Source: Yuukianura sp. NJ FZ-2021 (Eukaryota). Taken from it: a stretch of DNA of 64,000 nt. The stretch is taken from the NCBI GenBank assembly GCA_046563655.1, contig CM102286.1, positions 9,486,001 to 9,550,000 on the forward strand, read 5' to 3'. A program made the position numbers and the translations under genes. The notes below the pieces were generated by a model that saw only the letters and a program-made list of their open reading frames with translations, had not been told where the DNA came from and ran no database searches. Positions 1,097 to 41,545 of this stretch are shown here, piece after piece; positions within the stretch are counted from its first letter, which is position 1, and each line of letters starts with the position of its first letter.

Positions 1097-3750
1097 TGAA
1101 ACGTAGGATCCGCTTCGTGTTGATTTTTTTTTTGTTTTAGACAGTTTTCAATTTGTAAGATGGTCTCCTGGAAGTATGGAATTTGATGAGACTTCATTTT
1201 AGCAAATACTTGAACCAATTCGAACAGGTTGTGATGAGTAGGTAGTAACCATTGGAGTTCAAAGTTTAGCTTCTCCATGACACAGTCACGTTTTCTGAGT
1301 TGATAGATGAATCTTATACTTTTCCGAAAAATCTTGTTGATGCACTTAAATTGGGAGGTTTTGCAGTTTGCCCAAATGATCAGCATGTATTGCAGAATTG
1401 GAGAGATGTATGAAGTCACCATTAGCTTCCTGTGTTGTTCGGAGAGAAGATTTTGAATTGGGTAGAGTGACCACAGAATTGAATTGCATTTCTTGATTAT
1501 GGAGATGTGATGTTCACACCATGTTAACGTATTATCAATTGTAAGACCGAGTGATTTGAAAGATGTTACACTTGTCACACTAGTGTTTCCCACTTGTAGT
1601 TGAATTAAGCCAATTTTGTCAATTATTTTCTTCTTCCCAATCAAAAGCACTTTGGTTTTTTCTATGTTCAGTGACATATGATTCTTTTCCATCCAGTTAT
1701 TAATTTTTCCAATTAGTATTTCTGCTCTTTGAATTAAGGAATTCACATGGTCTGGATGATCTGCAAGCACAATGTTGTTGTCGTCTGCAAATAGAATTGC
1801 AGACGCATCAGTTATGATATCCAAAAGGTCATTGATCATAATGGCAAACAGTAGAGGACCAAGTACTGAGCCTTGAGGAACTGACAAAATGGTTTGACGG
1901 GAAGTTGAACTTGACTTGTGAATTTCTACATGCTGTGACCTACTGCTCAGATAGGATTCAAACCATTTAGTTGAAATATTGTACCACCGCATTTTATCAA
2001 TAAGGAAACCTTTGTTGACCGTGTCAAAAGCTTTTTTGAGATCTAAGGAAATCACCAGACAGATTTTGCCATGATTAAGGTGAGAGTATATTATGTCCAT
2101 TAGTGCGAGTTGAGCCAGTGTAGTTGAGTGGTGCTGACGAAACCCAAATTGGGCCTTATTCAGTATAGAGTGGCTGTTCAAAAACTCAGTTAATTGATAG
2201 TGAGCAACTTTTTCTAAGAGTTTACCAAGCACTGGTTGGAGGGAGATTGGTCTAGTGTCGGATGGGTGTTTTGGAACTTTTACTTTTGGCAGTGGAATAA
2301 CTTTTGAATGTTGAAGCAACGATGGAAACACTTTTGTTTCAAAGCTTTTGTTTACAAGATTTAGCAGTTGCGTTTTTATGTTAGGCGCACTTTCACTGTG
2401 GGAAAGAATCCAGTTTGAAATGCCGAATTGATCGCTACTTCTGGATTGTTTGTTTTTCACATTCTTCCAAATCTTGTTAAATTGATGAACTGTCACTGGC
2501 TTGAGATCAAAAGTTTCAAGGGGAGTGACCATAGAAGTTGGTTTTATTGGGTAAAGTGTCGATACTGTTTGAGGTGTGGTGATTGAAGTAAAATATTCAT
2601 TGATTTCATCTGCACTCATAGGAAGATCATTGAATTTCGATTTCGTTTTTGACCAGACTTTTGAAATTGCCTTAAAGGGGCCAAGTTTTTCAATGTCAAG
2701 GTTTAAGGTGTCTTTTCTATCACGTAATACAGCCGACTTCACTTTTTTTTTGATTTGTTGTAATTCGAGTTTGAGTACTTGATCTTTATTTTTTACACTT
2801 CCAAGCTGGTCCCTTAATAAAATCAGATTTTTGGTTTCTTGTGAAAGTGTAAGTGGCACAACTTTCGGAACGAATGAAACAGTTTTGGTTTTTGCTGTGT
2901 CCTCAAAGTTGGTTTTGATTTTCTGCATAAATTCTTGGAACTGGGAGTTTAGATCCATATCACTGGTTTGGAATGATGTGAACACATTCTTGAGGCCAAA
3001 TTCCTCAAAGTCAAAATTTTTGTAGTCTCTATACGTAAACTGCACTCGTGGAATTTTTGGCTTCGTCAAGTTGAGTGTAAGAAGGGTCATCGCATGGTCG
3101 GAGAGATGGGGATCGATGACACTATGATCAACTACTGTTGTTTCGGAGTTAGTGAATATTAGGTCAAGTATTGACTCTCCCCTGGTTGGTTGCTCCACTA
3201 GTTGATGAAATATGGATGTTGTTTTTTTAACAAGATGACGACATTTAGGAGGAATGTACTTCTGGTTCAAGTTAAAGTCTCCAAAGACGAAGCTGTTTTT
3301 CCTGCTGAGACTCAATTCATTAAAGAGTTTGTTTAATGAATCTAAATCACTGTTGATTATTTCAGAAGAGTAATTAGGAATACGGTAAACACTGGAGACG
3401 AGAAAGCATTTGTTGTGGTTGAGTTGAATTGATACGGTAATCACTTCAAAGTTACAGTTAAGAGGCAAATTGATAACTTTCACTTTTGACTTCAGCGTAG
3501 ATCTAATAAGGATGCCTACACCTCCTTTTGCTTGCCATTCTCTGTCAAGGTGGAAGAATTCAAATCCTTCTATTGATCTTGGTGGGTTAGTGATCTTGAG
3601 ATGCGTTTCAGAGATACACAAGACGTCGAGATTGTAAGTGTCAATCAGTATTTTTATTAATTCACATTTTGAATTGAATCCACAAACATTAAGTCCAGCA
3701 ATTTTCAATATTTTACAGGAAGTTGATGGAGCCGCGTCAAGATGATCTAG
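1093..3750 (-). CDS. LINE ORF2: AP-type endonuclease plus reverse transcriptase (no AUG start; frame open from the ORF1 stop)
   Basis: Endonuclease motifs LNVCGF, CISETHL, GDFN, LDLIF, SDH. RT motifs RPISL, QFGFR, LDLKKAFDTV, VPQGSVLGPLLF, FADD, SLGL. Confidence 0.96.
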   Translation of the reverse strand, partial: LDHLDAAPSTSCKILKIAGLNVCGFNSKCELIKILIDTYNLDVLCISETHLKITNPPRSIEGFEFFHLDREWQAKGGVGILIRSTLKSKVKVINLPLNCNFEVITVSIQLNHNKCFLVSSVYRIPNYSSEIINSDLDSLNKLFNELSLSRKNSFVFGDFNLNQKYIPPKCRHLVKKTTSIFHQLVEQPTRGESILDLIFTNSETTVVDHSVIDPHLSDHAMTLLTLNLTKPKIPRVQFTYRDYKNFDFEEFGLKNVFTSFQTSDMDLNSQFQEFMQKIKTNFEDTAKTKTVSFVPKVVPLTLSQETKNLILLRDQLGSVKNKDQVLKLELQQIKKKVKSAVLRDRKDTLNLDIEKLGPFKAISKVWSKTKSKFNDLPMSADEINEYFTSITTPQTVSTLYPIKPTSMVTPLETFDLKPVTVHQFNKIWKNVKNKQSRSSDQFGISNWILSHSESAPNIKTQLLNLVNKSFETKVFPSLLQHSKVIPLPKVKVPKHPSDTRPISLQPVLGKLLEKVAHYQLTEFLNSHSILNKAQFGFRQHHSTTLAQLALMDIIYSHLNHGKICLVISLDLKKAFDTVNKGFLIDKMRWYNISTKWFESYLSSRSQHVEIHKSSSTSRQTILSVPQGSVLGPLLFAIMINDLLDIITDASAILFADDNNIVLADHPDHVNSLIQRAEILIGKINNWMEKNHMSLNIEKTKVLLIGKKKIIDKIGLIQLQVGNTSVTSVTSFKSLGLTIDNTLTWCEHHISIIKKCNSILWSLYPIQNLLSEQHRKLMVTSYISPILQYMLIIWANCKTSQFKCINKIFRKSIRFIYQLRKRDCVMEKLNFELQWLLPTHHNLFELVQVFAKMKSHQIPYFQETILQIENCLKQKKNQHEADPTFQ

Positions 3751-4500
3751 TCATTTCTGGTTTGGATGAGAATTATTAACTCGAGGCTGAGGCAAAATTG
3801 TAGGATTTGACGTGCGTTTGAGTGCTCTGTTGATTCTTGTAGCTTTGGGTACGTCATCTCTAAGTACAAGTCTATCACCAGGTGGTGAGGTCGGCAAGTC
3901 AAATCGTTTTCCCCAAACAGCGTTTCTTTCGTTCCTGGATCTGAAAACGATTTTTACGGGAGGAATTCGAGTGCCATTGAAGTTACCAAGACGAGAGGCG
4001 GCAGAGATGAAGTTGGTGTTATTGAGTCCAGTCAATTCAGAGCAGAGATTTTCAATGTAGTCGTTAAGTAGAGATTCAGTTTCATCGGTCAGCTTGTTCA
4101 GTCCATGCAGGATGAGATTCGATTTGCCAAGTTCAATCTGGATTTGTTCAATTTCCTTGTCGTGTGTGGATAGTTTAACAGTGTCCGCATCTTGTCTTGA
4201 TTCCACAATAGAAACTCGGCTTTGTAGTGATGTGATTTGAGAAGAGAGGTCGGTAATTTGCTGGGACAGTTTGTGGTTGTCCTTTTGTAGATCAATTCGA
4301 AGCTGATTAATGGCTGCCAGTACAGTTTCGTTAGCCATTTTCTGTTTCTTAGGGCCAACGGAAGCAGAAGTGTCGTCAACTGAAATATTGGCTTTACGTT
4401 TTGAACTTCTTGTGTTTGGCTGATTTGTGTTCGGCAACTGAAGAACGTTAACAGTGTCTAGTGGAGTATCAATTGTGGAGTCACTGGTTATGGAACTCAT
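3751..4500 (-). CDS. LINE ORF1 protein (coiled coil plus RRM-like RNA-binding region)
   Basis: 249 aa. Heptad-like segment (LSQQITDLSSQITSLQSRV) followed by NLILHGL...RLG...PPVKIVF...LRDDVP, as in L1/CR1/L2-type ORF1. Lies directly upstream of ORF2. Confidence 0.88.
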   Translation of the reverse strand: MSSITSDSTIDTPLDTVNVLQLPNTNQPNTRSSKRKANISVDDTSASVGPKKQKMANETVLAAINQLRIDLQKDNHKLSQQITDLSSQITSLQSRVSIVESRQDADTVKLSTHDKEIEQIQIELGKSNLILHGLNKLTDETESLLNDYIENLCSELTGLNNTNFISAASRLGNFNGTRIPPVKIVFRSRNERNAVWGKRFDLPTSPPGDRLVLRDDVPKATRINRALKRTSNPTILPQPRVNNSHPNQK

Positions 4501-4840
4501 TGGAAGGATGTACGGTGTCCGTCAGGTACCAAAGCATTACTTCCATGTCCGTTTGCTAAAAAATTGCAGTTTACATTAGCAGTATACGTAGTCAGCTGTT
4601 TGAGGTAACTGGTAATATGATTAGAGTGACTACTTATCTTATATATGAAGATAACCAGGATCACCAGGAACAAGGATTGACTATGCAATCAGTCAAACAA
4701 TTGTTCCCGTCACGATGTCACGATGTAGTCCGGATCCAGTGGCCTGTTAAATTTCCATACTCCTCCTGGATGCTCAATTTTTTTTATTTTTTTGGGAGAC
4801 ATTGGAAAGGTCAAGGACAGTAGCATAAAATGATTGGATA

Positions 4841-22800: not shown

Positions 22801-25800
22801 GCCTTCGTAAACAACATCAAGAAACTTTTATCCTGAACCTTGACAACGCGATGTTTCTCAAAATTAGAAGTAGGTAAATGAGGCTTGGTTAACTTTATTT
22901 GTCTCAAACACGTTATCCCCGACAAGAAAGTCCTGTTGTAGTTTTAGTGCCACCAAGAAGCATTTTTGAATTTGCGAATAGTATCACAGGCACGCTTAAA
23001 ATTAGGCCAACCAGTGAGGTCAAGGTCCTGATTATTCCAATTGATATCGAATTAATTACAACTGCAGAATCTAGCATGCTACTGCAATTCCCTGTAGTAT
23101 TTTGGTTGAAATTTTTCAAGTGCAACAATGATTAATCGTTTGAGCCTACTTCTTGTCGCCTCTCTGCCCACTCTAATTTTACAGCCATATGGACTACCAA
23201 GCCAAAAAACGCGTGTAGTAGAGACAACGCAAACTTATTGGTCAACATTCCATACTGTAGAATGAATAAGGCAAGCACGGACTATTAGCCTTCGTAAACA
23301 ACATCAAGAAACTTTTATCCTGAACCTTGACAACGCGATGTTTCTCAAAATTAGAAGTAGGTAAATGAGGCTTGGTTAACTTTATTTGTCTCAAACACGT
23401 TATCCCCGACAAGAAAGTCCTGTTGTAGTTTTAGTGCCACCAAGAAGCATTTTTGAATTTGCGAATAGTATCACAGGCACGCTTAAAATTAGGCCAACCA
23501 GTGAGGTCAAGGTCCTGATTATTCCAATTGATATCGAATTAATTACAACTGCAGAATCTAGCATGCTACTGCAATTCCCTGTAGTATTTTGGTTGAAATT
23601 TTTCAAGTGCAACAATGATTAATCGTTTGAGCCTACTTCTTGTCGCCTCTCTGCCCACTCTAATTTTACAGCCATATGGACTACCAAGCCAAAAAACGCG
23701 TGTAGTAGAGACAACGCAAACTTATTGGTCAACAATCCATACTGTAGAATGAATAAGGCAAGCACGGACTATTAGCCTTCGTAAACAACATCAAGAAACT
23801 TTTATCCTGAACCTTGACAACGCGATGTTTCTCAAAATTAGAAGTAGGTAAATGAGGCTTGGTTAACTTTATTTGTCTCAAACACGTTATCCCCGACAAG
23901 AAAGTCCTGTTGTAGTTTTAGTGCCACCAAGAAGCATTTTTGAATTTGCGAATAGTATCAAAGGCACGCTTAAAATTAGGCCAACCAGTGAGGTCAAGGT
24001 CCTGATTATTCCAATTGATATCGAATTAATTACAACTGCAGAATCTAGCATGCTACTGCAATTCCCTGTAGTATTTTGGTTGAAATTTTTCAAGTGCAAC
24101 AATGATTAGTCGTTTGAGCCTACTTCTTGTCCCCTCTCTGCCCACTCTAATTTTATAGCCATATGGACTATCAAGCCAAAAAACGCGTGTAGTAGAGACA
24201 ACGCAAACTTGTTGGCCAGCATTCCATACTGTAGAATGAATAAGGCAAGCACGGACTATTAGCCTTCGTAAACAACATCAAGAAACTTTTATCCTGAACC
24301 TTGACAACGCGATGTTTCTCAAAATTAGAAGTAGGTAAATGAGGCTTGGTTAACTTTATTTGTCTCAAACACGTTATCCCCGACAAGAAAGTCCTGTTGT
24401 AGTTTTAGTGCCACCAAGAAGCATTTTTGAATTTGCGAATAGTATCACAGGCACGCTTAAAATTAGGCCAACCAGTGAGGTCAAGGTCCTGATTATTCCA
24501 ATTGACCAATTGATATCGAATTAATTACAACTGCAGAATCTAGCATGCTACTGCAATTCCCTGTAGTATTTTGGTTGAAATTTTTCAAGTGCAACAATGA
24601 TTAATCGTTTGAGCCTACTTCTTGTCGCCTCTCTGCCCACTCTAATTTTATAGCCATATGGACTATCAAGCCAAAAAACGCGTGTAGTAGAGACAACGCA
24701 AACTTGTTGGCCAACATTCCATACTCTAGAATGAATAAGGCAAGCACGGACTATTAGCCTTCGTAAACAACATCAAGAAACTTTTATCCTGAACCTTGAC
24801 AACGCGATGTTTCTCAAAATTAGAAGTAGATAAATGAGGCTTGGTTAACTTTATTTGTCTCAAACACGTTATCCCCGACAAGAAAGTCCTGTTGTAGTTT
24901 TAGTGCCACCAAGAAGCATTTTTGAATTTGCGAATAGTATCACAGGCACGCTTAAAATTAGGCCAACCAGTGAGGTCAAGGTCCTGATTATTCCAATTGA
25001 CCAATTGATATCGAATTAATTACAACTGCAGAATCTAGCATGCTACTGCAATTCCCTGTAGTATTTTGGTTGAAATTTTTCAAGTGCAACAATGATTAAT
25101 CGTTTGAGCCTACTTCTTGTCGCCTCTCTGCCCACTCTAATTTTATAGCCATATGGACTATCAAGCCAAAAAACGCGTGTAGTAGAGACAACGCAAACTT
25201 GTTGGCCAACATTCCATACTCTAGAATGAATAAGGCAAGCACGGACTATTAGCCTTCGTAAACAACATCAAGAAACTTTTATCCTGAACCTTGACAACGC
25301 GATGTTTCTCAAAATTAGAAGTAGATAAATGAGGCTTGGTTAACTTTATTTGTCTCAAACACGTTATCCCCGACAAGAAAGTCCTGTTGTAGTTTTAGTG
25401 CCACCAAGAAGCATTTTTGAATTTGCGAATAGTATCACAGGCACGCTTAAAATTAGGCCAACCAGTGAGGTCAAGGTCCTGATTATTCCAATTGATATCG
25501 AATTAATTACAACTGCAGAATCTAGCATGCTACTGCAATTCCCTGTAGTATTTTGGTTGAAATTTTTCAAGTGCAACAATGATTAATCGTTTGAGCCTAC
25601 TTCTTGTCGCCTCTCTGCCCACTCTAATTTTACAGCCATATGGACTACCAAGCCAAAAAACGCGTGTAGTAGAGACAACGCAAACTTATTGGTCAACATT
25701 CCATACTGTAGAATGAATAAGGCAAGCACGGACTATTAGCCTTCGTAAACAACATCAAGAAACTTTTATCCTGAACCTTGACAACGCGATGTTTCTCAAA

Positions 25801-28800
25801 ATTAGAAGTAGGTAAATGAGGCTTGGTTAACTTTATTTGTCTCAAACACGTTATCCCCGACAAGAAAGTCCTGTTGTAGTTTTAGTGCCACCAAGAAGCA
25901 TTTTTGAATTTGCGAATAGTATCACAGGCACGCTTAAAATTAGGCCAACCAGTGAGGTCAAGGTCCTGATTATTCCAATTGATATCGAATTAATTACAAC
26001 TGCAGAATCTAGCATGCTACTGCAATTCCCTGTAGTATTTTGGTTGAAATTTTTCAAGTGCAACAATGATTAGTCGTTTGAGCCTACTTCTTGTCCCCTC
26101 TCTGCCCACTCTAATTTTATAGCCATATGGACTATCAAGCCAAAAAACGCGTGTAGTAGAGACAACGCAAACTTGTTGGCCAACATTCCATACTGTAGAA
26201 TGAATAAGGCAAGCACGGACTATTAGCCTTCGTAAACAACATCAAGAAACTTTTATCCTGAACCTTGACAACGCGATGTTTCTCAAAATTAGAAGTAGGT
26301 AAATGAGGCTTGGTTAACTTTATTTGTCTCAAACACGTTATCCCCGACAAGAAAGTCCTGTTGTAGTTTTAGTGCCACCAAGAAGCATTTTTGAATTTGC
26401 GAATAGTATCACAGGCACGCTTAAAATTAGGCCAACCAGTGAGGTCAAGGTCCTGATTATTCCAATTGATATCGAATTAATTACAACTGCAGAATCTAGC
26501 ATGCTACTGCAATTCCCTGTAGTATTTTGGTTGAAATTTTTCAAGTGCAACAATGATTAATCGTTTGAGCCTACTTCTTGTCGCCTCTCTGCCCACTCTA
26601 ATTTTATAGCCATATGGACTATCAAGCCAAAAAACGCGTGTAGTAGAGACAACGCAAACTTGTTGGCCAGCATTCCATACTGTAGAATGAATAAGGCAAG
26701 CACGGACTATTAGCCTTCGTAAACAACATCAAGAAACTTTTATCCTGAACCTTGACAACGCGATGTTTCTCAAAATTAGAAGTAGGTAAATGAGGCTTGG
26801 TTAACTTTATTTGTCTCAAACACGTTATCCCCGACAAGAAAGTCCTGTTGTAGTTTTAGTGCCACCAAGAAGCATTTTTGAATTTGCGAATAGTATCACA
26901 GGCACGCTTAAAATTAGGCCAACCAGTGAGGTCAAGGTCCTGATTATTCCAATTGATATCGAATTAATTACAACTGCAGAATCTAGCATGCTACTGCAAT
27001 TCCCTGTAGTATTTTGGTTGAAATTTTTCAAGTGCAACAATGATTAGTCGTTTGAGCCTACTTCTTGTCCCCTCTCTGCCCACTCTAATTTTATAGCCAT
27101 ATGGACTATCAAGCCAAAAAACGCGTGTAGTAGAGACAACGCAAACTTGTTGGCCAGCATTCCATACTGTAGAATGAATAAGGCAAGCACGGACTATTAG
27201 CCTTCGTAAACAACATCAAGAAACTTTTATCCTGAACCTTGACAACGCGATGTTTCTCAAAATTAGAAGTAGGTAAATGAGGCTTGGTTAACTTTATTTG
27301 TCTCAAACACGTTATCCCCGACAAGAAAGTCCTGTTGTAGTTTTAGTGCCACCAAGAAGCATTTTTGAATTTGCGAATAGTATCACAGGCACGCTTAAAA
27401 TTAGGCCAACCAGTGAGGTCAAGGTCCTGATTATTCCAATTGACCAATTGATATCGAATTAATTACAACTGCAGAATCTAGCATGCTACTGCAATTCCCT
27501 GTAGTATTTTGGTTGAAATTTTTCAAGTGCAACAATGATTAATCGTTTGAGCCTACTTCTTGTCGCCTCTCTGCCCACTCTAATTTTATAGCCATATGGA
27601 CTATCAAGCCAAAAAACGCGTGTAGTAGAGACAACGCAAACTTGTTGGCCAACATTCCATACTCTAGAATGAATAAGGCAAGCACGGACTATTAGCCTTC
27701 GTAAACAACATCAAGAAACTTTTATCCTGAACCTTGACAACGCGATGTTTCTCAAAATTAGAAGTAGATAAATGAGGCTTGGTTAACTTTATTTGTCTCA
27801 AACACGTTATCCCCGACAAGAAAGTCCTGTTGTAGTTTTAGTGCCACCAAGAAGCATTTTTGAATTTGCGAATAGTATCACAGGCACGCTTAAAATTAGG
27901 CCAACCAGTGAGGTCAAGGTCCTGATTATTCCAATTGATATCGAATTAATTACAACTGCAGAATCTAGCATGCTACTGCAATTCCCTGTAGTATTTTGGT
28001 TGAAATCTTTCAAGTGCAACAATGATTAATCGTTTGAGCCTACGTCTTGTCGCCTCTCTGCCCACTCTAATTTTACAGCCATATGGAATACCAAGCCAAA
28101 AAAACGCGTGTAGTAGAGACAACGCAAACTTGTTGGCCAACATTCCATACTGTAGAATGAATAAGGCAAGCACGGACTATTAGCCTTCGTAAACAACATC
28201 AAGAAAGTTTTATCCTGAACCTTGACAACGCGATGTTTCTCAAAATTAGAAGTAGATAAATGAGGCTTGGTTAACTTTATTTGTCTCAAACACGTTATCC
28301 CCGACAAGAAAGTCCTGTTGTAGTTTTAGTGCCACCAAGAACAATTTTTGAATTTGCGAATAGTATCACAGGCACGCTTAAAATTAGGCCAACCAGTGAG
28401 GTCAAGGTCCTGATTATTCCAATTGACCAATTGATATCGAATTAATTACAACTGCAGAATCTAGCATGCTACTGCAATTCCCTGTAGTATTTTGGTTGAA
28501 ATTTTTCAAGTGCAACAATGATTAATCGTTTGAGCCTACTTCTTGTCGCCTCTCTGCCCACTCTAATTTTATAGCCATATGGACTACCAAGCCAAAAAAC
28601 GCGTGTAGTAGAGACAACGCAAACTTGTTGGCCAACATTCCATACTGTAGAATGAATAAGGCAAGCACGGACTATTAGCCTTCGTAAACAACATCAAGAA
28701 ACTTTTATCCTGAACCTTGACAACGCGATGTTTCTCAAAATTAGAAGTAGATAAATGAGGCTTGGTTAACTTTAGTTGTCTCAAACACGTTATCCCCGAC

Positions 28801-31800
28801 AAGAAAGTCCTGTTGTAGTTTTAGTGCCACCAAGAAGCATTTTTGAATTTGCGAATAGTATCACAGGCACGCTTAAAATTAGGCCAACCAGTGAGGTCAA
28901 GGTCCTGATTATTCCAATTGATATCGAATTAATTACAACTGCAGAATCTAGCATGCTACTGCAATTCCCTGTAGTATTTTGGTTGAAATCTTTCAAGTGC
29001 AACAATGATTAATCGTTTGAGCCTACGTCTTGTCGCCTCTCTGCCCACTCTAATTTTACAGCCATATGGAATACCAAGCCAAAAAACGCGTGTAGTAGAG
29101 ACAACGCAAACTTGTTGGCCAACATTCCATACTGTAGAATGAATAAGGCAAGCACGGACTATTAGCCTTCGTAAACAACATCAAGAAAGTTTTATCCTGA
29201 ACCTTGACAACGCGATGTTTCTCAAAATTAGAAGTAGATAAATGAGGCTTGGTTAACTTTATTTGTCTCAAACACGTTATCCCCGACAAGAAAGTCCTGT
29301 TGTAGTTTTAGTGCCACCAAGAACAATTTTTGAATTTGCGAATAGTATCACAGGCACGCTTAAAATTAGGCCAACCAGTGAGGTCAAGGTCCTGATTATT
29401 CCAATTGACCAATTGACATCGAATTAATTACAACTGCAGAATCTAGCATGCTACTGCAATTCCCTGTAGTATTTTGGTTGAAATTTTTCAAGTGCAACAA
29501 TGATTAATCGTTTGAGCCTACTTCTTGTCGCCTCTCTGCCCACTCTAATTTTACAGCCATATGGACTACCAAGCCAAAAAACGCGTGTAGTAGAGACAAC
29601 GCAAACTTGTTGGCCAACATTCCATACTGTAGAATGAATAAGGCAAGCACGGACTATTAGCCTTCGTAAACAACATCAAGAAACTTTTATCCTGAACCTT
29701 GACAACGCGATGTTTCTCAAAATTAGAAGTAGATAAATGAGGCTTGGTTAACTTTATTTGTCTCAAACACGTTATCCCCGACAAGAAAGTCCTGTTGTAG
29801 TTTTAGTGCCACCAAGGAGCATTTTTGAATTTGCGAATAGTATCACAGGCACGCTTAAAATTAGGCCAACCAGTGAGGTCAAGGTCCTGATTATTCCAAT
29901 TGATATCCAATTAATTACAACTGCAGAATCTAGCATGCTACTGCAATTCGCTGTAGTATTTTGGTTGAAATTTTTCAAGTGCAACAATGATTAATCGTTT
30001 GAGCCTACTTTTTGTCGCCTCTCCGCCCACTCTAATTTTACAGCCATATGGACTACCAAGCCAAAAAACGCGTGTAGTAGAGACAACGCAAACTTGTTGG
30101 CCAACATTCCATACTGTAGAATGAATAAGGCAAGCACGGACTATTAGCCTTCGTAAACAACATCAAGAAACTTTTATCCTGAACCTTGACAACGCGATGT
30201 TTCTCAAAATTAGAAGTAGATAAATGAGGCTTGGTTAACTTTATTTGTCTCAAACACGTTATCCCCGACAAGAAAGTCCTGTTGTAGTTTTAGTGCCACC
30301 AAGAAGCATTTTTGAATTTGCGAATAGTATCACAGGCACGCTTAAAATTAGGCCAACCAGTGAGGTCAAGGTCCTGATTATTACAATTGATATCGAATTA
30401 ATTACAACTGCAGAATCTAGCATGCTACTGCAATTCCCTGTAGTATTTTGGTTGAAATTTTTCAAGTGCAACAATGATTAATCGTTTGAGCCTACTTCTT
30501 GTCGCCTCTCTGCCCACTCTAATTTTACAGCCATATGGACTACCAAGCCAAAAAACGCGTGTAGTAGAGACAACGCAAACTTGTTGGCCAACATTCCATA
30601 CTGTAGAATGAATAAGGCAAGCACGGACTATTAGCCTTCGTAAACAACATCAAGAAACTTTTATCCTGAACCTTGACAACGCGATGTTTCTCAAAATTAG
30701 AAGTAGATAAATGAGGCTTGGTTAACTTTATTTGTCTCAAACACGTTATCCCCGACAAGAAAGTCCTGTTGTAGTTTTAGTGCCACCAAGAAGCATTTTT
30801 GAATTTGCGAATAGTATCACAGGCACGCTTAAAATTAGGCCAACCAGTGAGGTCAAGGTCCTGATTATTCCAATTGACCAATTGATATCGAATTAATTAC
30901 AACTGCAGAATCTAGCATGCTACTGCAATTCCCTGTAGTATTTTGGTTGAAATTTTTCAAGTGCAACAATGATTAATCGTTTGAGCCTACTTCTTGTCGC
31001 CTCTCTGCCCACTCTAATTTTATAGCCATATGGACTATCAAGCCAAAAAACGCGTGTAGTAGAGACAACGCAAACTTGTTGGCCAACATTCCATACTGTA
31101 GAATGAATAAGGCAAGCACGGACTATTAGCCTTCGTAAACAACATCAAGAAACTTTTATCCTGAACCTTGACAACGTGATGTTTCTCAAAATTAGAAGTA
31201 GATAAATGAGGCTTGGTTAACTTTATTTGTCTCAAACACGTTATCCCCGACAAGAAAGTCCTGTTGTAGTTTTAGTGCCACCAAGAAGCATTTTTGAATT
31301 TGCGAATAGTATCACAGGCACGCTTAAAATTAGGCCAACCAGTGAGGTCAAGGTCCTGATTATTCCAATTGATATCGAATTAATTACAACTGCAGAATCT
31401 AGCATGCTACTGCAATTCCCTGTAGTATTTTGGTTGAAATCTTTCAAGTGCAACAATGATTAATCGTTTGAGCCTACGTCTTGTCGCCTCTCTGCCCACT
31501 CTAATTTTACAGCCATATGGAATACCAAGCCAAAAAACGCGTGTAGTAGAGACAACGCAAACTTGTTGGCCAACATTCCATACTGTAGAATGAATAAGGC
31601 AAGCACGGACTATTAGCCTTCGTAAACAACATCAAGAAAGTTTTATCCTGAACCTTGACAACGCGATGTTTCTCAAAATTAGAAGTAGATAAATGAGGCT
31701 TGGTTAACTTTATTTGTCTCAAACACGTTATCCCCGACAAGAAAGTCCTGTTGTAGTTTTAGTGCCACCAAGAACCATTTTTGAATTTGCGAATAGTATC

Positions 31801-32990
31801 ACAGGCACGCTTAAAATTAGGCCAACCAGTGAGGTCAAGGTCCTGATTATTCCAATTGACCAATTGATATCGAATTAATTACAACTGCAGAATCTAGCAT
31901 GCTACTGCAATTCCCTGTAGTATTTTGGTTGAAATTTTTCAAGTGCAACAATGATTAATCGTTTGAGCCTACTTCTTGTCGCCTCTCTGCCCACTCTAAT
32001 TTTACAGCCATATGGACTACCAAGCCAAAAAACGCGTGTAGTAGAGACAACGCAAACTTGTTGGCCAACATTCCATACTGTAGAATGAATAAGGCAAACA
32101 CGGACTATTAGCCTTCGTAAACAACATCAAGAAACTTTTATCCTGAACCTTGACAACGCGATGTTTCTCAAAATTAGAAGTAGATAAATGAGGCTTGGTT
32201 AACTTTATTTGTCTCAAACACGTTATCCCCGACAAGAAAGTCCTGTTGTAGTTTTAGTGCCACCAAGAAGCATTTTTGAATTTGCGAATAGTATCACAGG
32301 CACGCTTAAAATTAGGCCAACCAGTGAGGTCAAGGTCCTGATTATTCCAATTGATATCGAATTAATTACAACGGCAGAATCTAGCATGCTACTGCAATTC
32401 CCTGTAGTATTTTGGTTGAAATTTTTCAAGTGCAACAATGATTAATCGTTTGAGCCTACTTCTTGTCGCCTCTCTGCCCACTCTAATTTTATAGCCATAT
32501 GGACTATCAAGCCAAAAAACGCGTGTAGTAGAGACAACGCAAACTTGTTGGCCAACATTCCATACTGTAGAATGAATAAGGCAAGCACGGACTATTAGCC
32601 TTCGTAAACAACATCAAGAAACTTTTATCCTGAACCTTGACAACGCGATGTTTCTCAAAATTAGAAGTAGATAAATGAGGCTTGGTTAACTTTATTTGTC
32701 TCAAACACGTTATCCCCGACAAGAAAGTCCTGTTGTAGTTTTAGTGCCACCAAGAAGCATTTTTGAATTTGCGAATAGTATCACAGGCACGCTTAAAATT
32801 AGGCCAACCAGTGAGGTCAAGGTCCTGATTATTCCAATTGATATCGAATTAATTACAACTGCAGAATCTAGCTTGCTACTGCAATTCCCTGTAGTATTTT
32901 GGTTGAAATTTTTCAAGTGCAACAATGATTAATCGTTTGAGCCTACTTCTTGTCGCCTCTCTGCCCACTCTAATTTTACAGCCATATGGA
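4841..32990. repeat. Satellite A tandem array, ~487 bp monomer, about 58 copies
   Basis: Near-identical units. Track ORFs recur every 487-489 bp (e.g. 22899, 23386, 23873). Some units are 495 bp because of an 8-bp duplication. Confidence 0.99.
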
Positions 32991-32994
32991 GGTC

Positions 32995-35900
32995 AATTAC
33001 CAAGCTTCATCGAAATGCACCACCCCCTGTAGCGTCAGCTGAAGAAACTATTTATTTCAGAGCAAAAACTTGTGTTTGATTTTTAAATTCCAAGCCGGTC
33101 TTGATGCAAAGGTCGTTGGTAATTACAAGAAAAAATAATTAAAACTTAAATTTCTCACTAACCTTTTAAATATTTTATGGACTATCCTTCAAGCTTCATC
33201 CCAATCCACAACCCCCTCACATTTAACAAAAATTATCACATCGTTTTGAGAGCAACTATTTCTGTTGAAAATTTTTGATCCGTCTGGTATTGAAGAATCC
33301 GTTGCTAATTACGATAAAAATTTTTCTAAATTACCAAGCTTCATCGAAATGCACCACCCCCTGTAGCGTAAGCTGAAGAAACTATTTATTTCAGAGCAAA
33401 AACTTGTGTTTGATTTTTAAATTCCAAGCCGGTCTTGATGCAAAGGTCGTTGGTAATTACAAGAAAAAATAATTAAAACTTAAATTTCTCAATAACCTTT
33501 TAAATATTTTATGGACTATCCTTCAAGCTTCATCCCAATCCACAGCCCTCACATTTAACAAAAATTATCACATCGTTTTGAGAGCAACTATTTCTGTTGA
33601 AAATTTTTGATCTATGTCTGGTATTGAAGAATCCGTTGCTAATTACGATAAAAATTTTTCTAAATTACCAAGGTTCATCGAAATGCACCACCCCCTGTAG
33701 CGTCAGCTGAAGAAACTATTTATTTCAGAGCAAAAACTTGTGTTTGATTTTTAAATTCCAAGCCGGTCTTGATGCAAAGGTCGTTGGTAATTACAAGAAA
33801 AAATAATTAAAACTTAAATTTCTCAATAACCTTTTAAATATTTTATGGACTATCCTTCAAGCTTCATCCCAATCCACAGCCCCCTCACATTTAACAAAAA
33901 TTATCACATCGTTTTGAGAGCAACTATTTCTGTTGAAAATTTTTGATCTATGTCTGGTATTGAAGAATCCGTTGCTAATTACGATAAAAATTTTTCTAAA
34001 TTACCAAGGTTCATCGAAATGCACCACCCCCTGTAGCGTCAGCTGAAGAAACTATTTATTTCAGAGCAAAAACTTGTGTTTGATTTTTAAATTCCAAGCC
34101 GGTCTTGATGCAAAGGTCGTTGGTAATTACAAGAAAAATAATTAAAACTTAAATTTCTCACTAACCTTTTAAATATTTTATGGACTATCCTTCAAGCTTC
34201 ATCCCAATCCACAACCCTCACATTTAACAAAAATTATCACATCGTTTTGAGAGCAACTATTTCTGTTGAAAATTTTTGATCCGTCTGGTATTGAAGAATC
34301 CGTTGCTAATTACGATAAAAATTTTTCTAAATTACCAAGCTTCATCGAAATGCACCACCCCCTGTAGCGTCAGCTGAAGAAACTATTTATTTCAGAGCAA
34401 AAACTTGTGTTTGATTTTTAAATTCCAAGCCGGTCTTGATGCAAAGGTCGTTGGTAATTACAAGAAAAAATAATTAAAACTTAAATTTCTCACTAACCTT
34501 TTAAATATTTTATGGACTATCCTTCAAGCTTCATCCCAATCCACAACCCTCACATTTAACAAAAATTATCACATCGTTTTGAGAGCAACTATTTCTGTTG
34601 AAAATTTTTGATCCGTCTGGTATTGAAGAATCCGTTGCTAATTACGATAAAAATTTTTCTAAATTACCAAGCTTCATCGAAATGCACCACCCCCTGTAGC
34701 GTCAGCTGAAGAAACTATTTATTTCAGAGCAAAAACTTGTGTTTGATTTTTAAATTCCAAGCCGGTCTTGATGCAAAGGTCGTTGGTAATTACAAGAAAA
34801 AATAATTAAAACTTAAATTTCTCAATAACCTTTTAAATATTTTATGGACTATCCTTCAAGCTTCATCCCAATCCACAACCCCCTCACATTTAACAAAAAT
34901 TATCACATCGTTTTGAGAGCAACTATTTCTGTTGAAAATTTTTGATCTATGTCTGGTATTGAAGAATCCGTTGCTAATTAAAGCTTCATCCCAATCCACA
35001 ACCCCCTCACATTTAACAAAAATTATCACATCGTTTTGAGAGCAACTATTTCTGTTGAAAATTTTTGATCTATGTCTGGTATTGAAGAATCCGTTGCTAA
35101 TTACGATAAAAATTTTTCTAAGTTACCAAGCTTCATCGAAATGCACCACCCCCTGTAGCGTCAGCTGAAGAAACTTTTTATTTCAGAGCAAAAACTTGTG
35201 TTTGATTTTTAAATTCCAAGCCGGTCTTGATGCAAAGGTCGTTGGTAATTACAAGAAAAAATAATTAAAACTTAAATTTCTCACTAACCTTTTAAATATT
35301 TTATGGACTATCCTTCAAGCTTCATCCCAATCCACAACCCCCTCACATTTAACAAAAATTATCACATCGTTTTGAGAGCAACTATTTCTGTTGAAAATTT
35401 TTGATCCGTCTGGTATTGAAGAATCCGTTGCTAATTACGATAAAAATTTTTCTAAATTACCAAGCTTCATCGAAATGCACCACCCCCTGTAGCGTCAGCT
35501 GAAGAAACTACTTATTTCAGAGCAAAAACTTGTGTTTGATTTTTAAATTCCAAGCCGGTCTTGATGCTAAGGTCGTTGGTAATTACAAGAAACAAGGTAG
35601 GGCGATGCTCAAGGGTTGAGCATAGGTCTTCTGGAGGGAGTTGACAATTGATACGACTGAGATCGGCCGGCCGCGAAACCGTTGAAGAAAAACGTTAAGA
35701 AACCGTTTTCACGAGATTTATCCTACGAAACATCGCTCATACTTTTCAGTGCAGATGTGGGGCATTCTGTGCACAATTGCACCAAAATGTTAAAAACCGT
35801 TTGCATTAAAATGTGAAAATTAAGCTCTGCACAGTTTTTTCTCCCTTCAAATTATTTGCTGCAAAATTGTTCTGAAATATGCACAGGTATTGACGTAACA

Positions 35901-37745
35901 ACGTCCTTTACCCAGCGTCAAAATAACTGCCCAATTCGACATTTGTGCATCTTACTTAAGTGTGCACAAAATTAAACGTTGAGTGGCAGGCGCCGAATAT
36001 AGCTTTTTTAAAATCAAAATCGGTTCAAATACATGCACCATGTGTTAAATCAAGTGCATAAGTAATAGAGTCGAATATAGCTTGTTAAAATCAAAATTAT
36101 AAAAATTGTTGAGAAAGGAAATTTGAACCCTGCAAGGCACTGTTTACGTATTACGAATTTAAGCCGGAATTTCTACCCTCTAATTTGGCTTAATTTAACA
36201 ACGTAATTAAACTAACTGCCAGAAAATGACCAGATCAAAACTTCGTTGTTAATAAATATTTTGAGTATAATGCAGACCTAACACAAAAATTTTGAGGACT
36301 TAAGAAACAGCAACGCGATGCAGAGGCAAACTTTGTGCGTTGTTAATGTAAGACTTTGAGTGCAATGTAGAGGTAATGAAAACACTTGAGCCACACATAA
36401 CCCCCCGACTGCGATGGGGCTTATGTTTCAGTGCAAAAGATCCTAAAAAAGCGAACGGACGGACGGACGGACAAAGTCGTATCAATAGTCTTCTTCAGCA
36501 CGTCGTAGACGTGCGTCTCCAGAAGACTAAAAATAATTAAAACTTAAATTTCTCAATAACCTTTTAAATATTTTATGGACTATCCTTCAAGCTTCATCCA
36601 AATCCACAACCCCCTCACATTTAACAAAAATTATCACATCGTTTTGAGAGCAACTATTTCTGTTGAAAATTTTTGATCTATGTCTGGTATTGAAGAATCC
36701 GTTGCTAATTACGATAAAAAATTTTCTAAGTTACCAAGCTTCATTGAAATGCACCACCCCCTGTAGCGTCAGCTGAAGAAACTTTTTATTTCAGAGCAAA
36801 AACTTGTGTTTGATTTTTAAATTCCAAGCCGGTCTTGATGCAAAGGTCGTTGGTAATTACAAGAAAAAATAATTAAAACTTAAATTTCTGACTAACCTTT
36901 TAAATATTTTATGGACTATCCTTCAAGCTTCATCCCAATCCACAACCCCACACAGTGAACAAAAATTATCACATCGTTTTGAGAGCAACTATTTCTGTTG
37001 AAAATTTTTGATCCGTCTGGTATTGAAGAATCCGTTGCTAATTACGATAAAAATTTTTCTAAATTACCAAGCTTCATCGAAATGCACCACCCCCTGTAGC
37101 GTCAGCTGAAGAAACTATTTATTTCAGAGCAAAAACTTGTGTTTGATTTTTAAATTCCAAGCCGGTCTTGATGCAAAGGTCGTTGGTAATTACAAGAAAA
37201 ATAATTAAAACTTAAATTTCTCAATAACCTTTTAAATATTTTATGGACTATCCTTCAAGCTTCATCCCAATCCACAACCCCCTCACATTTAACAAAAATT
37301 ATCACATCGTTTTGAGAGCAACTATTTCTGTTGAAAATTTTTGATCTATGTCTGGTATTGAAGAATCCGTTGCTAATTAAAGCTTCATCCCAATCCACAA
37401 CCCCCTCACATTTAACAAAAATTATCACATCGTTTTGAGAGCAACTATTTCTGTTGAAAATTTTTGATCTATGTCTGGTATTGAAGAATCCGTTGCTAAT
37501 TACGATAAAAATTTTTCTAAGTTACCAAGCTTCATCGAAATGCACCACCCCCTGTAGCGTCAGCTGAAGAAACTTTTTATTTCAGAGCAAAAACTTGTGT
37601 TTGATTTTTAAATTCCAAGCCGGTCTTGATGCAAAGGTCGTTGGTAATTACAAGAAAAAATAATTAAAACTTAAATTTCTCACTAACCTTTTAAATATTT
37701 TATGGACTATCCTTCAAGCTTCATCCCAATCCACAACCCCCTCAC
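32995..37745. repeat. Satellite B tandem array, ~334-336 bp unit (two related subunits of ~189 and ~145 bp), about 10-11 units, interrupted by a HINE-like insertion
   Basis: caagcttcatcgaaatgc at 33001 and 33335, caagcttcatcccaatcc at 33190. AT-rich, no ORFs in the track. Confidence 0.97.
35593..36528 (-). mobile_element. Non-autonomous Helentron (HINE / DINE-1-like) element
   Basis: Inserted in an A run of satellite B (T run on minus) without a distinct TSD. Subterminal inverted repeat gtcttctggag (35626-35636) / ctccagaagac (36517-36527). Hairpin atgctcaa-ggg-ttgagcat (35605-35623) near the minus-strand 3' end. (GTCC)n microsatellite on minus at 36455-36472. The minus-strand 5' end folds on an internal IR (36486-36494 with 36521-36529). 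Confidence 0.8.
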
Positions 37746-38187
37746 CTATCAGTCTTGACTCATACGCGGTTGGCGCTATTGTTCTCACAATTGAAAGGGG
37801 GGTGGCTACAAGCTCCTCCTTCTCCTCTTCCGTCACTTCTTTCTTCCCCAGCCAGTTGGGTAGCTGGCTGCTGTACTAACGACTTGTATAGAAGATTTAC
37901 TGCTCTCCGCGCTTGGCGTAGATGAAACCGAACGTCTAGAAATATTCCGTGAAGGAACGGGTTGAGGGACGGTGAGCCGTCTCCTCGGCAACGGTGTAAC
38001 AATTGACCGGGCTGTAGCGCATTGAGGTCCCAGACCCTACAGCTGCCCATTGAGCCAGCAATCGAAGTCGCTTTGAGGGTGGAGTCGCGACCACTCGAGA
38101 GAGGCGATGACGTAGGACAGAGGGTTTTTCTTCGACACCTGTCGCATACCCCGAGGAGCGAAACACAACGAGGCTACAAGCGAAGCA

Positions 38188-39822
38188 ATGAAACAAATTA
38201 CCGAACCTTGGCGGTTCAACCCTGTTACAGGATACCTGGACGGTATGACTCCACGGATGCTCCTTGTATTTTGCGTCGGGACGACGCTTGTTGCAGAGGT
38301 CGCCGGAACGATGATGTGCCCATGGGCACTGGCGACGCGAACTCGACGAAGTCCGGTGAACCCTCACCGGTGGACCAAGAGGAAACTTACCTGGACCCTT
38401 GGACCTACTCCATACGACATGGACCGAGAAGAAGCACTGGCTGACGCCAGTCTGGCGTTTGTGAAATGGCAACGCTATTCCAACTTCACCTTTACTTACG
38501 TGGAGGGGAATGCTGACATCCCCATCACTTTCGAACATGAAATCCATGATGACGCCAGTGACGGACGTGGAGGCACATTAGCCCACGCCCACTATCCAGG
38601 ATCAGTTATGGGCGGACAAATCCACCTAGACGCCAACGAGACTTGGTCTCTCGGAGAAGATGACGAACACGTCAACTTGTTTTCGGTACTCCTACACGAA
38701 ATCGGCCACGCCTTGGCCTTGCCACACACTCGTGCCATAGGATCTGTGATGACAGCATGGTACCAGTTCTGGCCGCACGTTACGGAAATAGGAGTCCCCG
38801 ACGAAGAAGCTCTGAAGGTCCTATACCCACCAGGGTTTTTCGACGAAGGTCCAGATGGAGAAAACATCCGAGGCCTGAGCACCCTGTGGTACGATCATGT
38901 TGGTTACCTCAATGGGGACCACCTCCTGTTTCATGGGAGGAGCCACGTTAGAGTTACGGGAGCTGGGACACTCCTCCCTACTCCAGTAAAGAACGAAGAT
39001 TTTTTCGAGGACTTCCCGCCGGATGGCCGAATCAACTTCACAGTCGGCGTCGCAAGTTACCTCTACGTTATGGTCGATGACCGAATCGGAGTATACTCAT
39101 CCGACGGCCACCTAATTACACCAGGACTCAAGCACCGAAGCATCTTTGGCATCACATACCCAGTTTTGGGGTACTTCCCGTCAGAACACACCCTCTGGAT
39201 CAGGCTTACCACTGGATGGAGGCCGTTATACCTTGAGAGGGGCATGATCCAAACATTGTGGGACGAGCCCGACATCTACATGCCTTACCCTCACCTACAA
39301 GAGCTACGTCTTGTCGGCATCCGGGACACAGAACGAGGCGTTTACACTTACGAGAAAGGCCGGGTCCAGCTGATAACCCGGGAAAACAAGCTACTAATGG
39401 ACAAGTCCCTATACGCATATCTTCAACTGGGGGTAGACTGCCAAACTGCCCACCTTATGTCCGACATATTCAACCCCGACACCTTCATGCGCGGTTTCAT
39501 AGTTGGGTTACTAGCCGGCATGGGGGCAATAGCTATTTCATTTTTCTGCAAATGCCGAGGGAGGAAGTTGTCCAACCCTCGACCCCGCATCATCCCAAGA
39601 CCTAGGGGACCAAATACAACTAATCATCTGATCCTTTCAGAAGAAGAAGAAGAAGACGAAGTAAGTCATGTCGGATCCAGCTCATCGACACACCCGACAG
39701 GACGGGACTCCACCAGTGTACGGACCTGCGGACCTAGCCGCAGTACTGAAGGAAGCAAAAGAACGGGATCGGCAACGGCCGAAGACGCCCACGGCAGGAG
39801 CCGGTGCGACGACAAGCCCTAG
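38188..39822 (+). CDS. Membrane-type matrix metalloproteinase-like protein (peptidase M10A/matrixin domain, degenerate hemopexin-like region, TM helix)
   Basis: Signal-like MLLVFCVGTTLVAEVAG (probable start M20 or M24, 38245/38257). RTRR furin site, W..RKLTW, ADIPITF, DGRGGTLAHAHYP, GGQIHLDANETW, NLFSVLLHEIGHALALPH (zinc motif 38695-38727), Met-turn SVMTAWY. Hydrophobic GFIVGLLAGMGAIAISFF followed by CKCRGRK. Confidence 0.93.
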   Translation: MKQITEPWRFNPVTGYLDGMTPRMLLVFCVGTTLVAEVAGTMMCPWALATRTRRSPVNPHRWTKRKLTWTLGPTPYDMDREEALADASLAFVKWQRYSNFTFTYVEGNADIPITFEHEIHDDASDGRGGTLAHAHYPGSVMGGQIHLDANETWSLGEDDEHVNLFSVLLHEIGHALALPHTRAIGSVMTAWYQFWPHVTEIGVPDEEALKVLYPPGFFDEGPDGENIRGLSTLWYDHVGYLNGDHLLFHGRSHVRVTGAGTLLPTPVKNEDFFEDFPPDGRINFTVGVASYLYVMVDDRIGVYSSDGHLITPGLKHRSIFGITYPVLGYFPSEHTLWIRLTTGWRPLYLERGMIQTLWDEPDIYMPYPHLQELRLVGIRDTERGVYTYEKGRVQLITRENKLLMDKSLYAYLQLGVDCQTAHLMSDIFNPDTFMRGFIVGLLAGMGAIAISFFCKCRGRKLSNPRPRIIPRPRGPNTTNHLILSEEEEEDEVSHVGSSSSTHPTGRDSTSVRTCGPSRSTEGSKRTGSATAEDAHGRSRCDDKP

Positions 39823-41173
39823 CGACCCTGTCGTAAGCCCAACAACGGGCCAAACGGGCGGGACAACAGGAACCGCCGGAGGGACCGGGAGCGCGTTCAC
39901 TTTCCCGGTGCCCGCAACGATTACCCCACCGACGCCGCCAGCAGGAGCTGGTGGACCGAGCTCAGTAGTTCCAGTTGTGAACCTAACCGGTGGCGGGCAG
40001 CCACCAGCATCCGGAATGCCAGGAGGAACGAACACCCCACCTACTCCGGGACCTCAGCAGCCTGTTGTGCTGACAACTCCCGCACCGAGCGTTGTGGTAT
40101 CCGTTTGGACACCACCGGGCGATTCAACATTTGAAGGAAAACGAGGCTACCCAGCCAGGAATTTCTGGGAGACATTCAAGGCAATAGCTGTTAACCAACG
40201 TTGGGACGAGGCTGCGAAAGTGCGCCATCTGCCGCTTTACCTCAAGGGCTATGCGAAGACATGGTTCTTGAACTTTCGCACCGACTGGGAGCGTGACCCA
40301 GCCAATCGAGACGCCGACGGCGACATTGTCGCTCTTCCATGGAAGACTCTGAAAGAGGGATTCCACACTAGCTTTAAGTCACGGCTCACTGAAGAAGAAC
40401 TGGAATATCGCTTGGCTCAACGGAAGAGAAATCCGAAAGAGAGCGTGGAAGACTACTGCGGCAAGGTGCTGCGACTATGTGACCAGTTGGACAAAAGCCA
40501 AGGGACCACCATGAAGGACGAAAAGCGGGTCAACTTCCTGCTCAAGGGGTTGCCTGCAGATGTCAGTCACGAGATATTCCTGCGGTAACCGAAGACGCCG
40601 CAAGATGTGACGCAGTTTCTTATCGAAAAGGAGAACTACGACTTCATGATGAAGCGGAAACGGGCTGGAACCGATCTACCCCGATTGACTGCGCGCTTCA
40701 ACAATATGAATTTGGAAGCACCAACGGAACCACAAGCTGGAGAACGACGCACAGTAAAACGACGCCCAGTATGGGGCAAAGCAGGCCACGGCTATAATCG
40801 TGACCAACCACAACAATCCCAGGGAGGAAGCCGGTACAACTCCGGACAGCGTGGCAACGGTCGCCCATGGCGACCACGGCAAGGCCAAAAGCCGTATGCA
40901 GGATGCTACGAGTGTGGTCGCGATGACCACCGCATAGCCAACTGTCCAAAGCGGTGGAAACAACGGGACACAAACTGGAACCGAAACCGGGTCCACTGCG
41001 AACATTGTGACGGGACACACCTTGGATACCGATGTCCTGCGGTAGGCGATGAGTATCACGCCATGAGACCCGCTTCTCCTTGCGACAAGGACAATTCAAC
41101 TCGTGCTATCGCACCAGCACCGACTACAAGCCGAGCCGTAACGGCTCAGGGAAACGCAGCGCGGCGACAGTAG
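39668..41173 (+). pseudogene. gag: Gag polyprotein, interrupted by one in-frame TAA (40586-40588)
   Basis: FEGKRGYPARNFWETF...WDEAAKVRHLPLYLKGYAKTWF and QRKRNPKESVEDY...FLLKGLP are typical retrotransposon Gag motifs. ORF 40607-41173 is in the same frame and has CYECGRDDHRIANC (CX2CX4HX4C) and CEHCDGTHLGYRC. Confidence 0.9.
41149..41155 (+). promoter_or_regulatory. -1 ribosomal frameshift slippery heptamer G GGA AAC (gag-pol junction)
   Basis: X XXY YYZ in the gag frame (caG GGA AAC), five sense codons before the gag stop. The -1 frame reads GKRSAATVER into the protease ORF. Confidence 0.85.
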
Positions 41174-41445
41174 AGAGGTCTGAAGCCCACTCACTCATTA
41201 AACCCTCTAATCCAACACGACCAGTTTTAGCCATGATGACACGCAATACAGCCTTCCCAGGAGACCCTAGTAGTACGGATCCCGTTGGAAACCTCATAAT
41301 TAGTATATTCATCCTGCAAGGCACAGCACTTAAGAGACGTTCGTGTCTACTCGACACGGGATGCCCCGTCAGTATAATTCGGCAGAACAATGTCACTCCG
41401 GACGAGCTCCAGCCTATCGACGCCTCATCAGCTCTTGACCTTCCA
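41149..41445 (+). CDS. pol: pol N-terminus: retropepsin-type aspartic protease (partial, truncated by gap)
   Basis: SCLLDTGCPVSII catalytic motif (DTG at 41353-41361), in the -1 frame relative to gag. Confidence 0.85.
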
Positions 41446-41545
41446 NNNNNNNNNNNNNNNNNNNNNNNNNNNNNNNNNNNNNNNNNNNNNNNNNNNNNNN
41501 NNNNNNNNNNNNNNNNNNNNNNNNNNNNNNNNNNNNNNNNNNNNN
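41446..41545. other. Assembly gap (100 N)
   Basis: Exactly 100 N, a usual placeholder for a gap of unknown size. Confidence 0.99.

Follow-up and report, generated by a model that had tools for sequence, protein, structure and literature searches.

An intact matrix metalloproteinase gene ahead of gag in a retrovirus-like element within satellite DNA of Yuukianura sp., probably a captured gene kept under selection

How does an intact gene for a matrix metalloproteinase (MMP) come to stand immediately ahead of gag, at the end of a satellite array? The question is raised by positions 37746-41445 of a 64,000-nucleotide (nt) stretch of Yuukianura sp. NJ FZ-2021 DNA (assembly GCA_046563655.1, contig CM102286.1, 9,486,001 to 9,550,000 of the forward strand), the whole of which is referred to here as the window. 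The region is understood as the 5' part of a retrovirus-like element of the long terminal repeat (LTR) type lying in satellite DNA, and the MMP as a captured element gene under purifying selection, a reading to which we assign a probability of about 0.8. We consider the MMP an element gene and not a chance neighbour because MMP and gag have a similar, multi-copy depth in DNA runs of the same organism and a contig of another copy crosses the MMP-gag junction, because the variation is largely synonymous, because an independently assembled relative has the same gene order, and because the MMPs of the two elements are sisters in trees of the catalytic domain.

The fragment has a GC content of 0.54-0.55 between flanks of 0.33-0.41 and reads, on the + strand and in the standard code, as leader, MMP open reading frame (ORF), gag, the beginning of a protease in the -1 frame and an assembly gap of 100 N (Table 1). 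An earlier note on this DNA, made from the letters alone, had described an intact 544-codon ORF with a full matrixin domain close inside the element boundary and on the gag strand, a 155-nt overlap with gag in another frame with no break in composition, and flanks made of satellite and a gap; all of these observations were confirmed. The ORF begins 442 nt inside the boundary, and the Pfam family Matrixin (PF00413) matches residues 61-213 at E 2.4e-36 (125.4 bits, cut-off 24), covering positions 1-158 of the 159 in the profile. The start of gag overlaps the end of the MMP ORF at 39668-39822 in a different frame, with similar GC and third-codon-position GC (GC3) on both sides (0.534 and 0.569 in the MMP, 0.578 and 0.560 in gag), so that composition is continuous. 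Satellite lies to the left of the element and the gap to its right, followed by a second satellite.

The MMP of the window keeps H170, E171, H174, H180 and M188, with alanine at residue 177, and its nearest solved structure is porcine MMP-1 (1fbl; E 2.1e-25), in an alignment that reaches the first hemopexin blade at residue 257. The protein has only about 60 residues ahead of its catalytic domain, and in it neither a match to the PG-binding propeptide domain (PF01471) nor the PRCGxPD cysteine switch is present; a lone cysteine, Cys44, lies 10 residues ahead of the furin-type site. A type I membrane topology is predicted from hydropathy.

The sequenced copies of the element in the same organism bear directly on the question of chance. 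Contigs of three DNA runs, all from one sample, were aligned to 37500-41445, and 196, 161 and 12 contigs, respectively, aligned at 85-100% identity. In run X1 they divide into 55, 61, 55 and 25 contigs at 99% or more, 95-99%, 90-95% and below 90% identity, a spread from which we conclude that the element forms a multi-copy family in which older and younger copies coexist. In the three runs the MMP and gag are similar in summed depth; the values for X1 are about 500-800 for the MMP and about 400-1000 for gag, against 24,000-38,000 for the satellite. The MMP-gag junction is crossed by a 1941-nt contig of another copy, which covers 38376-40332 and is about 92% identical to the window (143 differing letters, 18 gaps). 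Variants were classified at the best-supported 40 of 444 variant sites, and among these the MMP ORF has 22, of which 20 fall at codon position 3 (binomial P 3e-8 for at least 20 of 22) and 19 are synonymous. The non-synonymous variants listed are P22L, F28L and K66N, the first two within the leader peptide; the synonymous sites listed include codons 217-303, beyond the catalytic domain. All three gag variants listed are synonymous, and the nine listed in the leader ahead of the MMP ORF show no codon periodicity.

The independent relative came from a search with the capsid part of gag, which found a single protein, P0004, among 343 candidates at 60% identity. Its source is a 4435-nt metagenome contig, L001, cut at both ends, on which a 5'-open MMP ORF, gag and a protease-reverse transcriptase (PR-RT) ORF follow one another as in the window (Table 1). 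The zinc motif of the L001 MMP is canonical, HEIGHALGLHH. The two MMPs can be aligned collinearly all the way between the furin site and the anchor (28% identity over 439 amino acids (aa), E 2e-43), with 28-31% identity overall, 43% in the catalytic domain and about 20% in the C-terminal half. The MMP is thus much more diverged than gag, for which the two elements agree at 59% and of which both copies begin MSD; the protease pieces around the DTG motif are 47% identical over 36 aa. Details of the arrangement are less constant: a 69-nt spacer separates MMP from gag in L001, so the 155-nt overlap of the window is not conserved, and neither is the 88-residue tail of the window protein, as the L001 MMP stops 11 residues past its membrane stretch. 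Neither the MMP, alone or as the alignment of both MMPs, nor L001 pol or the gag alignment gave a relative in scans of IMG/VR, and a scan of prokaryote genomes with gag gave none. The corresponding prokaryote scan with the MMP alignment returned two contigs of Terriglobia metagenome-assembled genomes (L002, 9784-10416; L003, 10001-10381); these loci were rejected as relatives of the element, being bacterial M10 peptidases with the catalytic domain only and 33-38% identity.

In these results the proposal of the earlier note, that a captured MMP is maintained as an accessory gene, finds support from the gene order of L001, the synonymous variation and the tree described below. Of the three outcomes that the note had named as fatal to this proposal, none was observed. 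Linkage of MMP and gag beyond one locus is seen in the bridging contig, the similar depth over both genes and the independent contig L001; the sole related family member recovered, L001, carries the ORF; and variation among the copies is not neutral, given the concentration of ORF variants at the third codon position beside an aperiodic leader. The tree of the catalytic domain that the note had suggested was built, and it groups the window MMP with that of L001, with membrane-anchored MMPs as the nearest branch.

Two trees of the catalytic domain were computed after hits covering fewer than 110 profile positions had been dropped, together with P0004 and P0005, which are not MMPs. Both trees join the window MMP and the L001 MMP as sisters, with an SH-like approximate likelihood-ratio (SH-aLRT) support of 85 in the tree of 165 rows and with ultrafast bootstrap (UFBoot) 98 and SH-aLRT 86 in a tree of 68 rows, composed of 19 chosen rows and every third of the remainder (97 rows left out). 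They belong to a clade of five rows (97/86) with P0011, P0029 and P0109. In each of these three, a signal peptide and a propeptide containing (P/A)RCG, with a Pfam PG_binding_1 match in P0011 and P0109, are followed by the catalytic domain, a hemopexin region that is divergent and a hydrophobic anchor at the C-terminus. They are uninterrupted ORFs on run-assembly contigs of 2.0-5.1 kb and may be either host genes or cargo themselves. The simplest reading of the sequences would be a single capture from a clade of membrane-anchored cellular MMPs, followed by loss of the propeptide domain. In wider searches, HMMER against 1.84 billion representatives returned 4260 hits, the high scores at the top being explained by the two or three catalytic domains that four of the five top scorers carry, and word-based searches with the MMP alone and with the alignment of both MMPs each passed 3 of 8000 candidates, octocoral or unnamed MMPs matched in the catalytic domain only.

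The C-terminal domain is assigned as hemopexin-like with moderate confidence, from comparison of sequences and profiles. Pfam finds no hemopexin match in the C-terminal half of the window MMP, and among about 160 sequences its residues 216-460 match only their L001 counterpart (E 7e-6). The C-terminal half of the L001 protein has matches to hemopexin domains of cellular proteins, at about 1e-8 to 1e-5, and to Pfam Hemopexin at E 1.7e-5. When a profile of the two element sequences was compared by hhalign with one of 60 cellular MMP tails, a probability of 94.4% was obtained (E 8.6e-8, 85 columns), compared to only 9% with the window sequence alone. The register of that alignment places Ser231 on the first hemopexin cysteine.

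As regards the class of the element, the order of its genes fits an LTR retroelement, namely a gag with capsid and CCHC parts and then PR-RT in the -1 frame with no integrase between them. The Ty3_capsid match of gag is weak (0.0053 in the window, 6.7e-5 in P0004), the two knuckle patterns, CX2CX4HX4C and CX2CX3HX4C, were read from the translation (zf-CCHC E 0.016, under the Pfam cut-off), and the gag profile gave no meaningful match against the PDB. The RT piece of L001 pol matches foamy-virus PR-RT best (E 1.9e-8) and also the RT of HIV-2, with no Pfam match at E<=0.01. The candidate slippery heptamer of the window, GGGAAAC, reads GGAAAAC at the homologous place in L001, and we infer that pol may be expressed by -1 frameshifting there. 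A 1388-nt contig of run X1 extends about 1.1 kb past 41445, so that the element goes on beyond the point at which the window breaks off into its gap. The name 'Gypsy-like' is not established, since neither an LTR nor RNase H nor integrase is seen, and serves as a label of convenience. The window has no tRNA gene with which a primer-binding site could be compared.

In the mechanism that we propose, the MMP would be translated as the 5'-proximal ORF of the element transcript, scanning ribosomes taking it as the first long ORF after the leader, and gag would be reached in another way. Two ATGs in the leader (37922, 38107) precede the MMP start. Since 33 ATGs lie between the start of the element and the ATG of gag, gag-pol must be reached by splicing, by internal entry or from a separate transcript. 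The sole GTAAGT of the element is found at 39661-39666, 1 nt ahead of the gag ATG, and in L001 an AATAAA (1298-1303) directly follows the MMP stop; from their letters these are possible splice-donor and early-polyadenylation signals, candidates for the making of separate MMP and gag-pol messages. The MMP would then enter the secretory pathway, be cut by furin and be displayed at the surface of the cells that express it, perhaps also on budding particles, as cellular membrane-type MMPs are processed by furin and displayed at the surface. Cleavage of extracellular matrix or of surface proteins at this place could allow capsids or particles to reach neighbouring or germline cells, and a role of the MMP in matrix breaching and spread is suggested by analogy with membrane-type MMPs, with the MMPs of granuloviruses and with the membrane protein sORF2 of Drosophila elements (see below). 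Only tentatively do we extend this to the wider proposal, possible and well short of probable, that a reverse-transcribing lineage, possibly including infectious viruses, uses an MMP ahead of gag as a factor of spread through matrix and basement membrane, replacing or joining the envelope fusogen.

Among the other explanations, that of an active, element-borne sheddase, which would act on host surface or immune molecules or on the element's own proteins and not on matrix, is unlikely in our judgement. Membrane-anchored MMPs do shed surface proteins, and the sequence of the element MMP itself points to no substrate; yet nothing separates a sheddase role from matrix degradation, and the protein appears to have kept a hemopexin-like domain, which in cellular MMPs is the module for binding of substrates and partners. 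Slightly less probable still is that the element-borne MMP scaffold, its catalysis weakened or gone, is re-used as an env-like surface protein that binds receptors, targets particles or remodels membranes. Such a change of function would suit the exchange of glycine for alanine in the window family at the nearly invariant glycine of HExxHxxGxxH, the loss of one hemopexin cysteine, the fast divergence of the MMP relative to gag, as is typical for surface proteins, and an order of parts (signal, furin site, ectodomain, anchor) that recalls a class I envelope protein. It is opposed by the retention, in both elements, of the three zinc histidines, the catalytic glutamate, the Met-turn and the structural-metal ligands that align with MMP-1, and by the canonical motif of L001; moreover no heptad repeat or fusion peptide was seen, in analyses that included no search aimed at either. 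Chance juxtaposition or misassembly, be it of a host MMP retrogene, a contaminant or a neutral passenger of one copy, is hardly credible although the copy lies between satellites and a scaffold gap with a defective gag and no RT or LTR in the window, since the same gene order recurs in an independent assembly, a contig of a diverged copy bridges the junction, depth is equal over MMP and gag, variation is mostly synonymous, composition runs on across both genes, and the distance between the end of the MMP and the start of gag is 69 nt in L001 and -155 nt in the window, without an intervening LTR.

Several observations nonetheless weigh against the MMP being a maintained gene of an LTR-type element. 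In the window copy gag is interrupted by its stop codon at 40589-40591, and neither LTR nor primer-binding site, RNase H or integrase is seen in the window piece or in L001, both of which are incomplete; RT is known only as an N-terminal piece in L001. That contig is also the only external relative found with the MMP-gag layout. As to the protein, the position of Ala177 is glycine in at least 90% of 70 aligned sequences, the disulfide pair C198/C383 of the L001 hemopexin domain corresponds to S231/C418 in the window, where one cysteine is left, and in none of the 150 best of the 4260 HMMER hits does the best-scoring stretch extend past query residue 314. As to the copies, the sample behind the three runs is possibly the source of the window assembly, and the variant classes speak for the best-supported sites. 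Some copies have frameshifting indels in the MMP (-2 nt at 38704, -1 nt at 38991 and -1 nt at 39000). Two contigs of run X2 leave the window sequence just after the gag ATG (39674), with about 21-22 unrelated letters upstream, and the consensus of these loose ends has no match anywhere in the window; some family members may thus have a different ORF, or none, upstream of gag.

The setting of the element is given in Table 1 along with its parts. Three distinct satellite families occupy most of the window, the element standing at the end of the 334-bp array, and its join to the 228-bp array runs through the scaffold gap. The left edge, 37745/37746, is the point at which the 334-bp satellite ends. 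A contig match starting at 37748 was not accepted as evidence of where the element truly begins, since the reference becomes satellite there and any copy must lose its match at that point. No LTR could be defined in the leader, and an Rfam scan of 37000-41445 gave one sub-threshold chance match only. A 33-nt inverted repeat around the MMP ORF (38078-38110 and 39682-39714, 76% complementary) is probably due to chance and was not accepted as a long-range RNA pairing, because its duplex energy of -37.1 is unexceptional beside other pairs of the window that reach -44.6. Near the left end of the window, at 1093-4521 on the - strand, lies an AT-rich long interspersed nuclear element (LINE, a non-LTR retrotransposon) with an 885-aa stop-to-stop ORF that contains an Exo_endo_phos endonuclease (E 5.7e-9) and an RVT_1 reverse transcriptase (E 3e-32), preceded by a 256-aa ORF1-like frame; its base composition is that of the host-like flanks, in contrast to the 54% GC of the MMP element. 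Because the element has 54% GC compared to 33-41% in the satellites and the LINE region, it may have been acquired recently through horizontal transfer.

Table 1. Features of the window and of the related metagenome contig L001
Sequence	Feature	Positions	Strand	Remarks
Window	Satellite, 487-bp unit	4841-32990		57.6 copies, 97% matches
Window	Satellite, 334-bp unit	32995-37745		sub-periods 123 and 459 bp
Window	Leader (5' untranslated region, possibly with LTR remnant)	37746-38187	+	442 nt; every frame closed; GC 0.54
Window	MMP ORF, membrane-anchored matrixin	38188-39822	+	544 codons, uninterrupted
Window	Signal-peptide-like hydrophobic stretch, residues 24-44	38257-38319	+	Kyte-Doolittle score 1.82; hydropathy only
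Window	Furin-type site RTRR, residues 51-54	38338-38349	+	motif scan, single site; aligns with RKRR of L001
Window	Matrixin catalytic domain, residues 61-213	38368-38826	+	zinc motif HEIGHALALPH at 38695-38727, then Met-turn M188
Window	Divergent hemopexin-like domain, residues ~216-431	38833-39480	+	moderate confidence; link via L001 and profile-profile comparison
Window	Predicted membrane-spanning helix, residues 432-456	39481-39555	+	hydropathy score 2.16; aligns with L001 membrane stretch
Window	Predicted cytoplasmic tail, residues 457-544, and stop codon	39556-39822	+	final 155 nt overlap gag
Window	gag, low-complexity N-terminal part, then capsid domain	39668-40588	+	Retrotrans_gag E 6.1e-10; 59-60% identity to P0004/L001 gag
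Window	In-frame stop codon within gag	40589-40591	+	window copy defective; P0004 open across same position
Window	gag nucleocapsid part, same frame, two zinc knuckles	40592-41173	+	first knuckle ~40901-40951; aligns with P0004
Window	pol start, -1 frame	41122-41445	+	frame opens no later than 41122; aspartic protease D-T-G at 41353-41361; runs into gap
Window	GGGAAAC heptamer, candidate -1 frameshift site	41149-41155	+	gag frame, 18 nt ahead of gag stop
Window	Assembly gap, 100 N	41446-41545		hides remainder of element; 228-bp satellite starts directly after
Window	Satellite, 228-bp unit	41546-64000		100.8 copies
L001	MMP ORF, 5'-open	2-1297		Matrixin E 2.9e-47 (160.9 bits); Hemopexin E 1.7e-5; strong membrane stretch
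L001	gag	1367-3199		one ORF through zinc knuckle
L001	PR-RT ORF, -1 frame	3220-4434		DTG, then RT start

The element MMP can be compared with several known systems. With the membrane-type MMPs of the MMP-14 class and the clade of P0011, P0029 and P0109 it shares the furin-type site, the zinc site, the Met-turn, a probable hemopexin-like domain and the predicted C-terminal anchor. It differs from them in having no PG-binding propeptide and no PRCGxPD, with the lone Cys44 only, in being a single uninterrupted ORF within a multi-copy retroelement, in its very divergent hemopexin domain and, in the window family, in the alanine that replaces glycine.

Captured matrixins are known from viruses. All betabaculoviruses (granuloviruses) sequenced are described as carrying an MMP, which varies strongly between members and is believed to promote the spread of the virus in its host (PMC4192325). 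The likeness to the element MMP is one of description, and the carrier is a large insect DNA virus and not a reverse-transcribing element. A parallel in position is offered by sORF2 of Drosophila LTR elements of the MDG1 group (412, Stalker2), an accessory membrane protein encoded ahead of gag, in the same orientation, in elements that lack env, with a reported transfer of capsids from soma to oocyte (bioRxiv 10.1101/2025.03.14.642691). That protein has about 70 aa, resembles the fusion-associated small transmembrane (FAST) fusogens and has no enzyme domain, whereas the MMP is a protease of 544 aa; no homology is claimed. LTR retrotransposons of bdelloid rotifers likewise carry, as stable accessory ORFs, genes acquired from cells or viruses, among them enzymes (a GDSL esterase and a DEDDy exonuclease) and env genes (PMC5408684), but these extra ORFs follow pol, as ORF3, and do not include a metalloproteinase. 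In plant lineages, Ty3/gypsy elements are described with an additional ORF after the 5' LTR and ahead of gag, as in the present element, for proteins of unknown or different function (PMC7264820). An LTR element or retrovirus with a matrixin gene was not found in a search of the full-text literature, outside of which most subscription journals lie. Captured accessory genes in retroelements are thus already known, and no report was found of an LTR-type element that has a matrix-degrading protease among its conserved genes.

Lastly, the finding has meaning for the annotation of genomes and for the biology of retroelements alike. Annotators should be aware that an MMP 'gene' without introns in a repeat-rich region may be carried by a transposon. 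The element MMP is an example, found in nature, of an enzyme of this class reduced so as to work without the propeptide domain. If the enzyme is active, it would strikingly parallel the captured MMPs of large insect DNA viruses, and it would offer a testable route by which a retroelement, without an envelope or beside one, could pass across tissue barriers to the germline.

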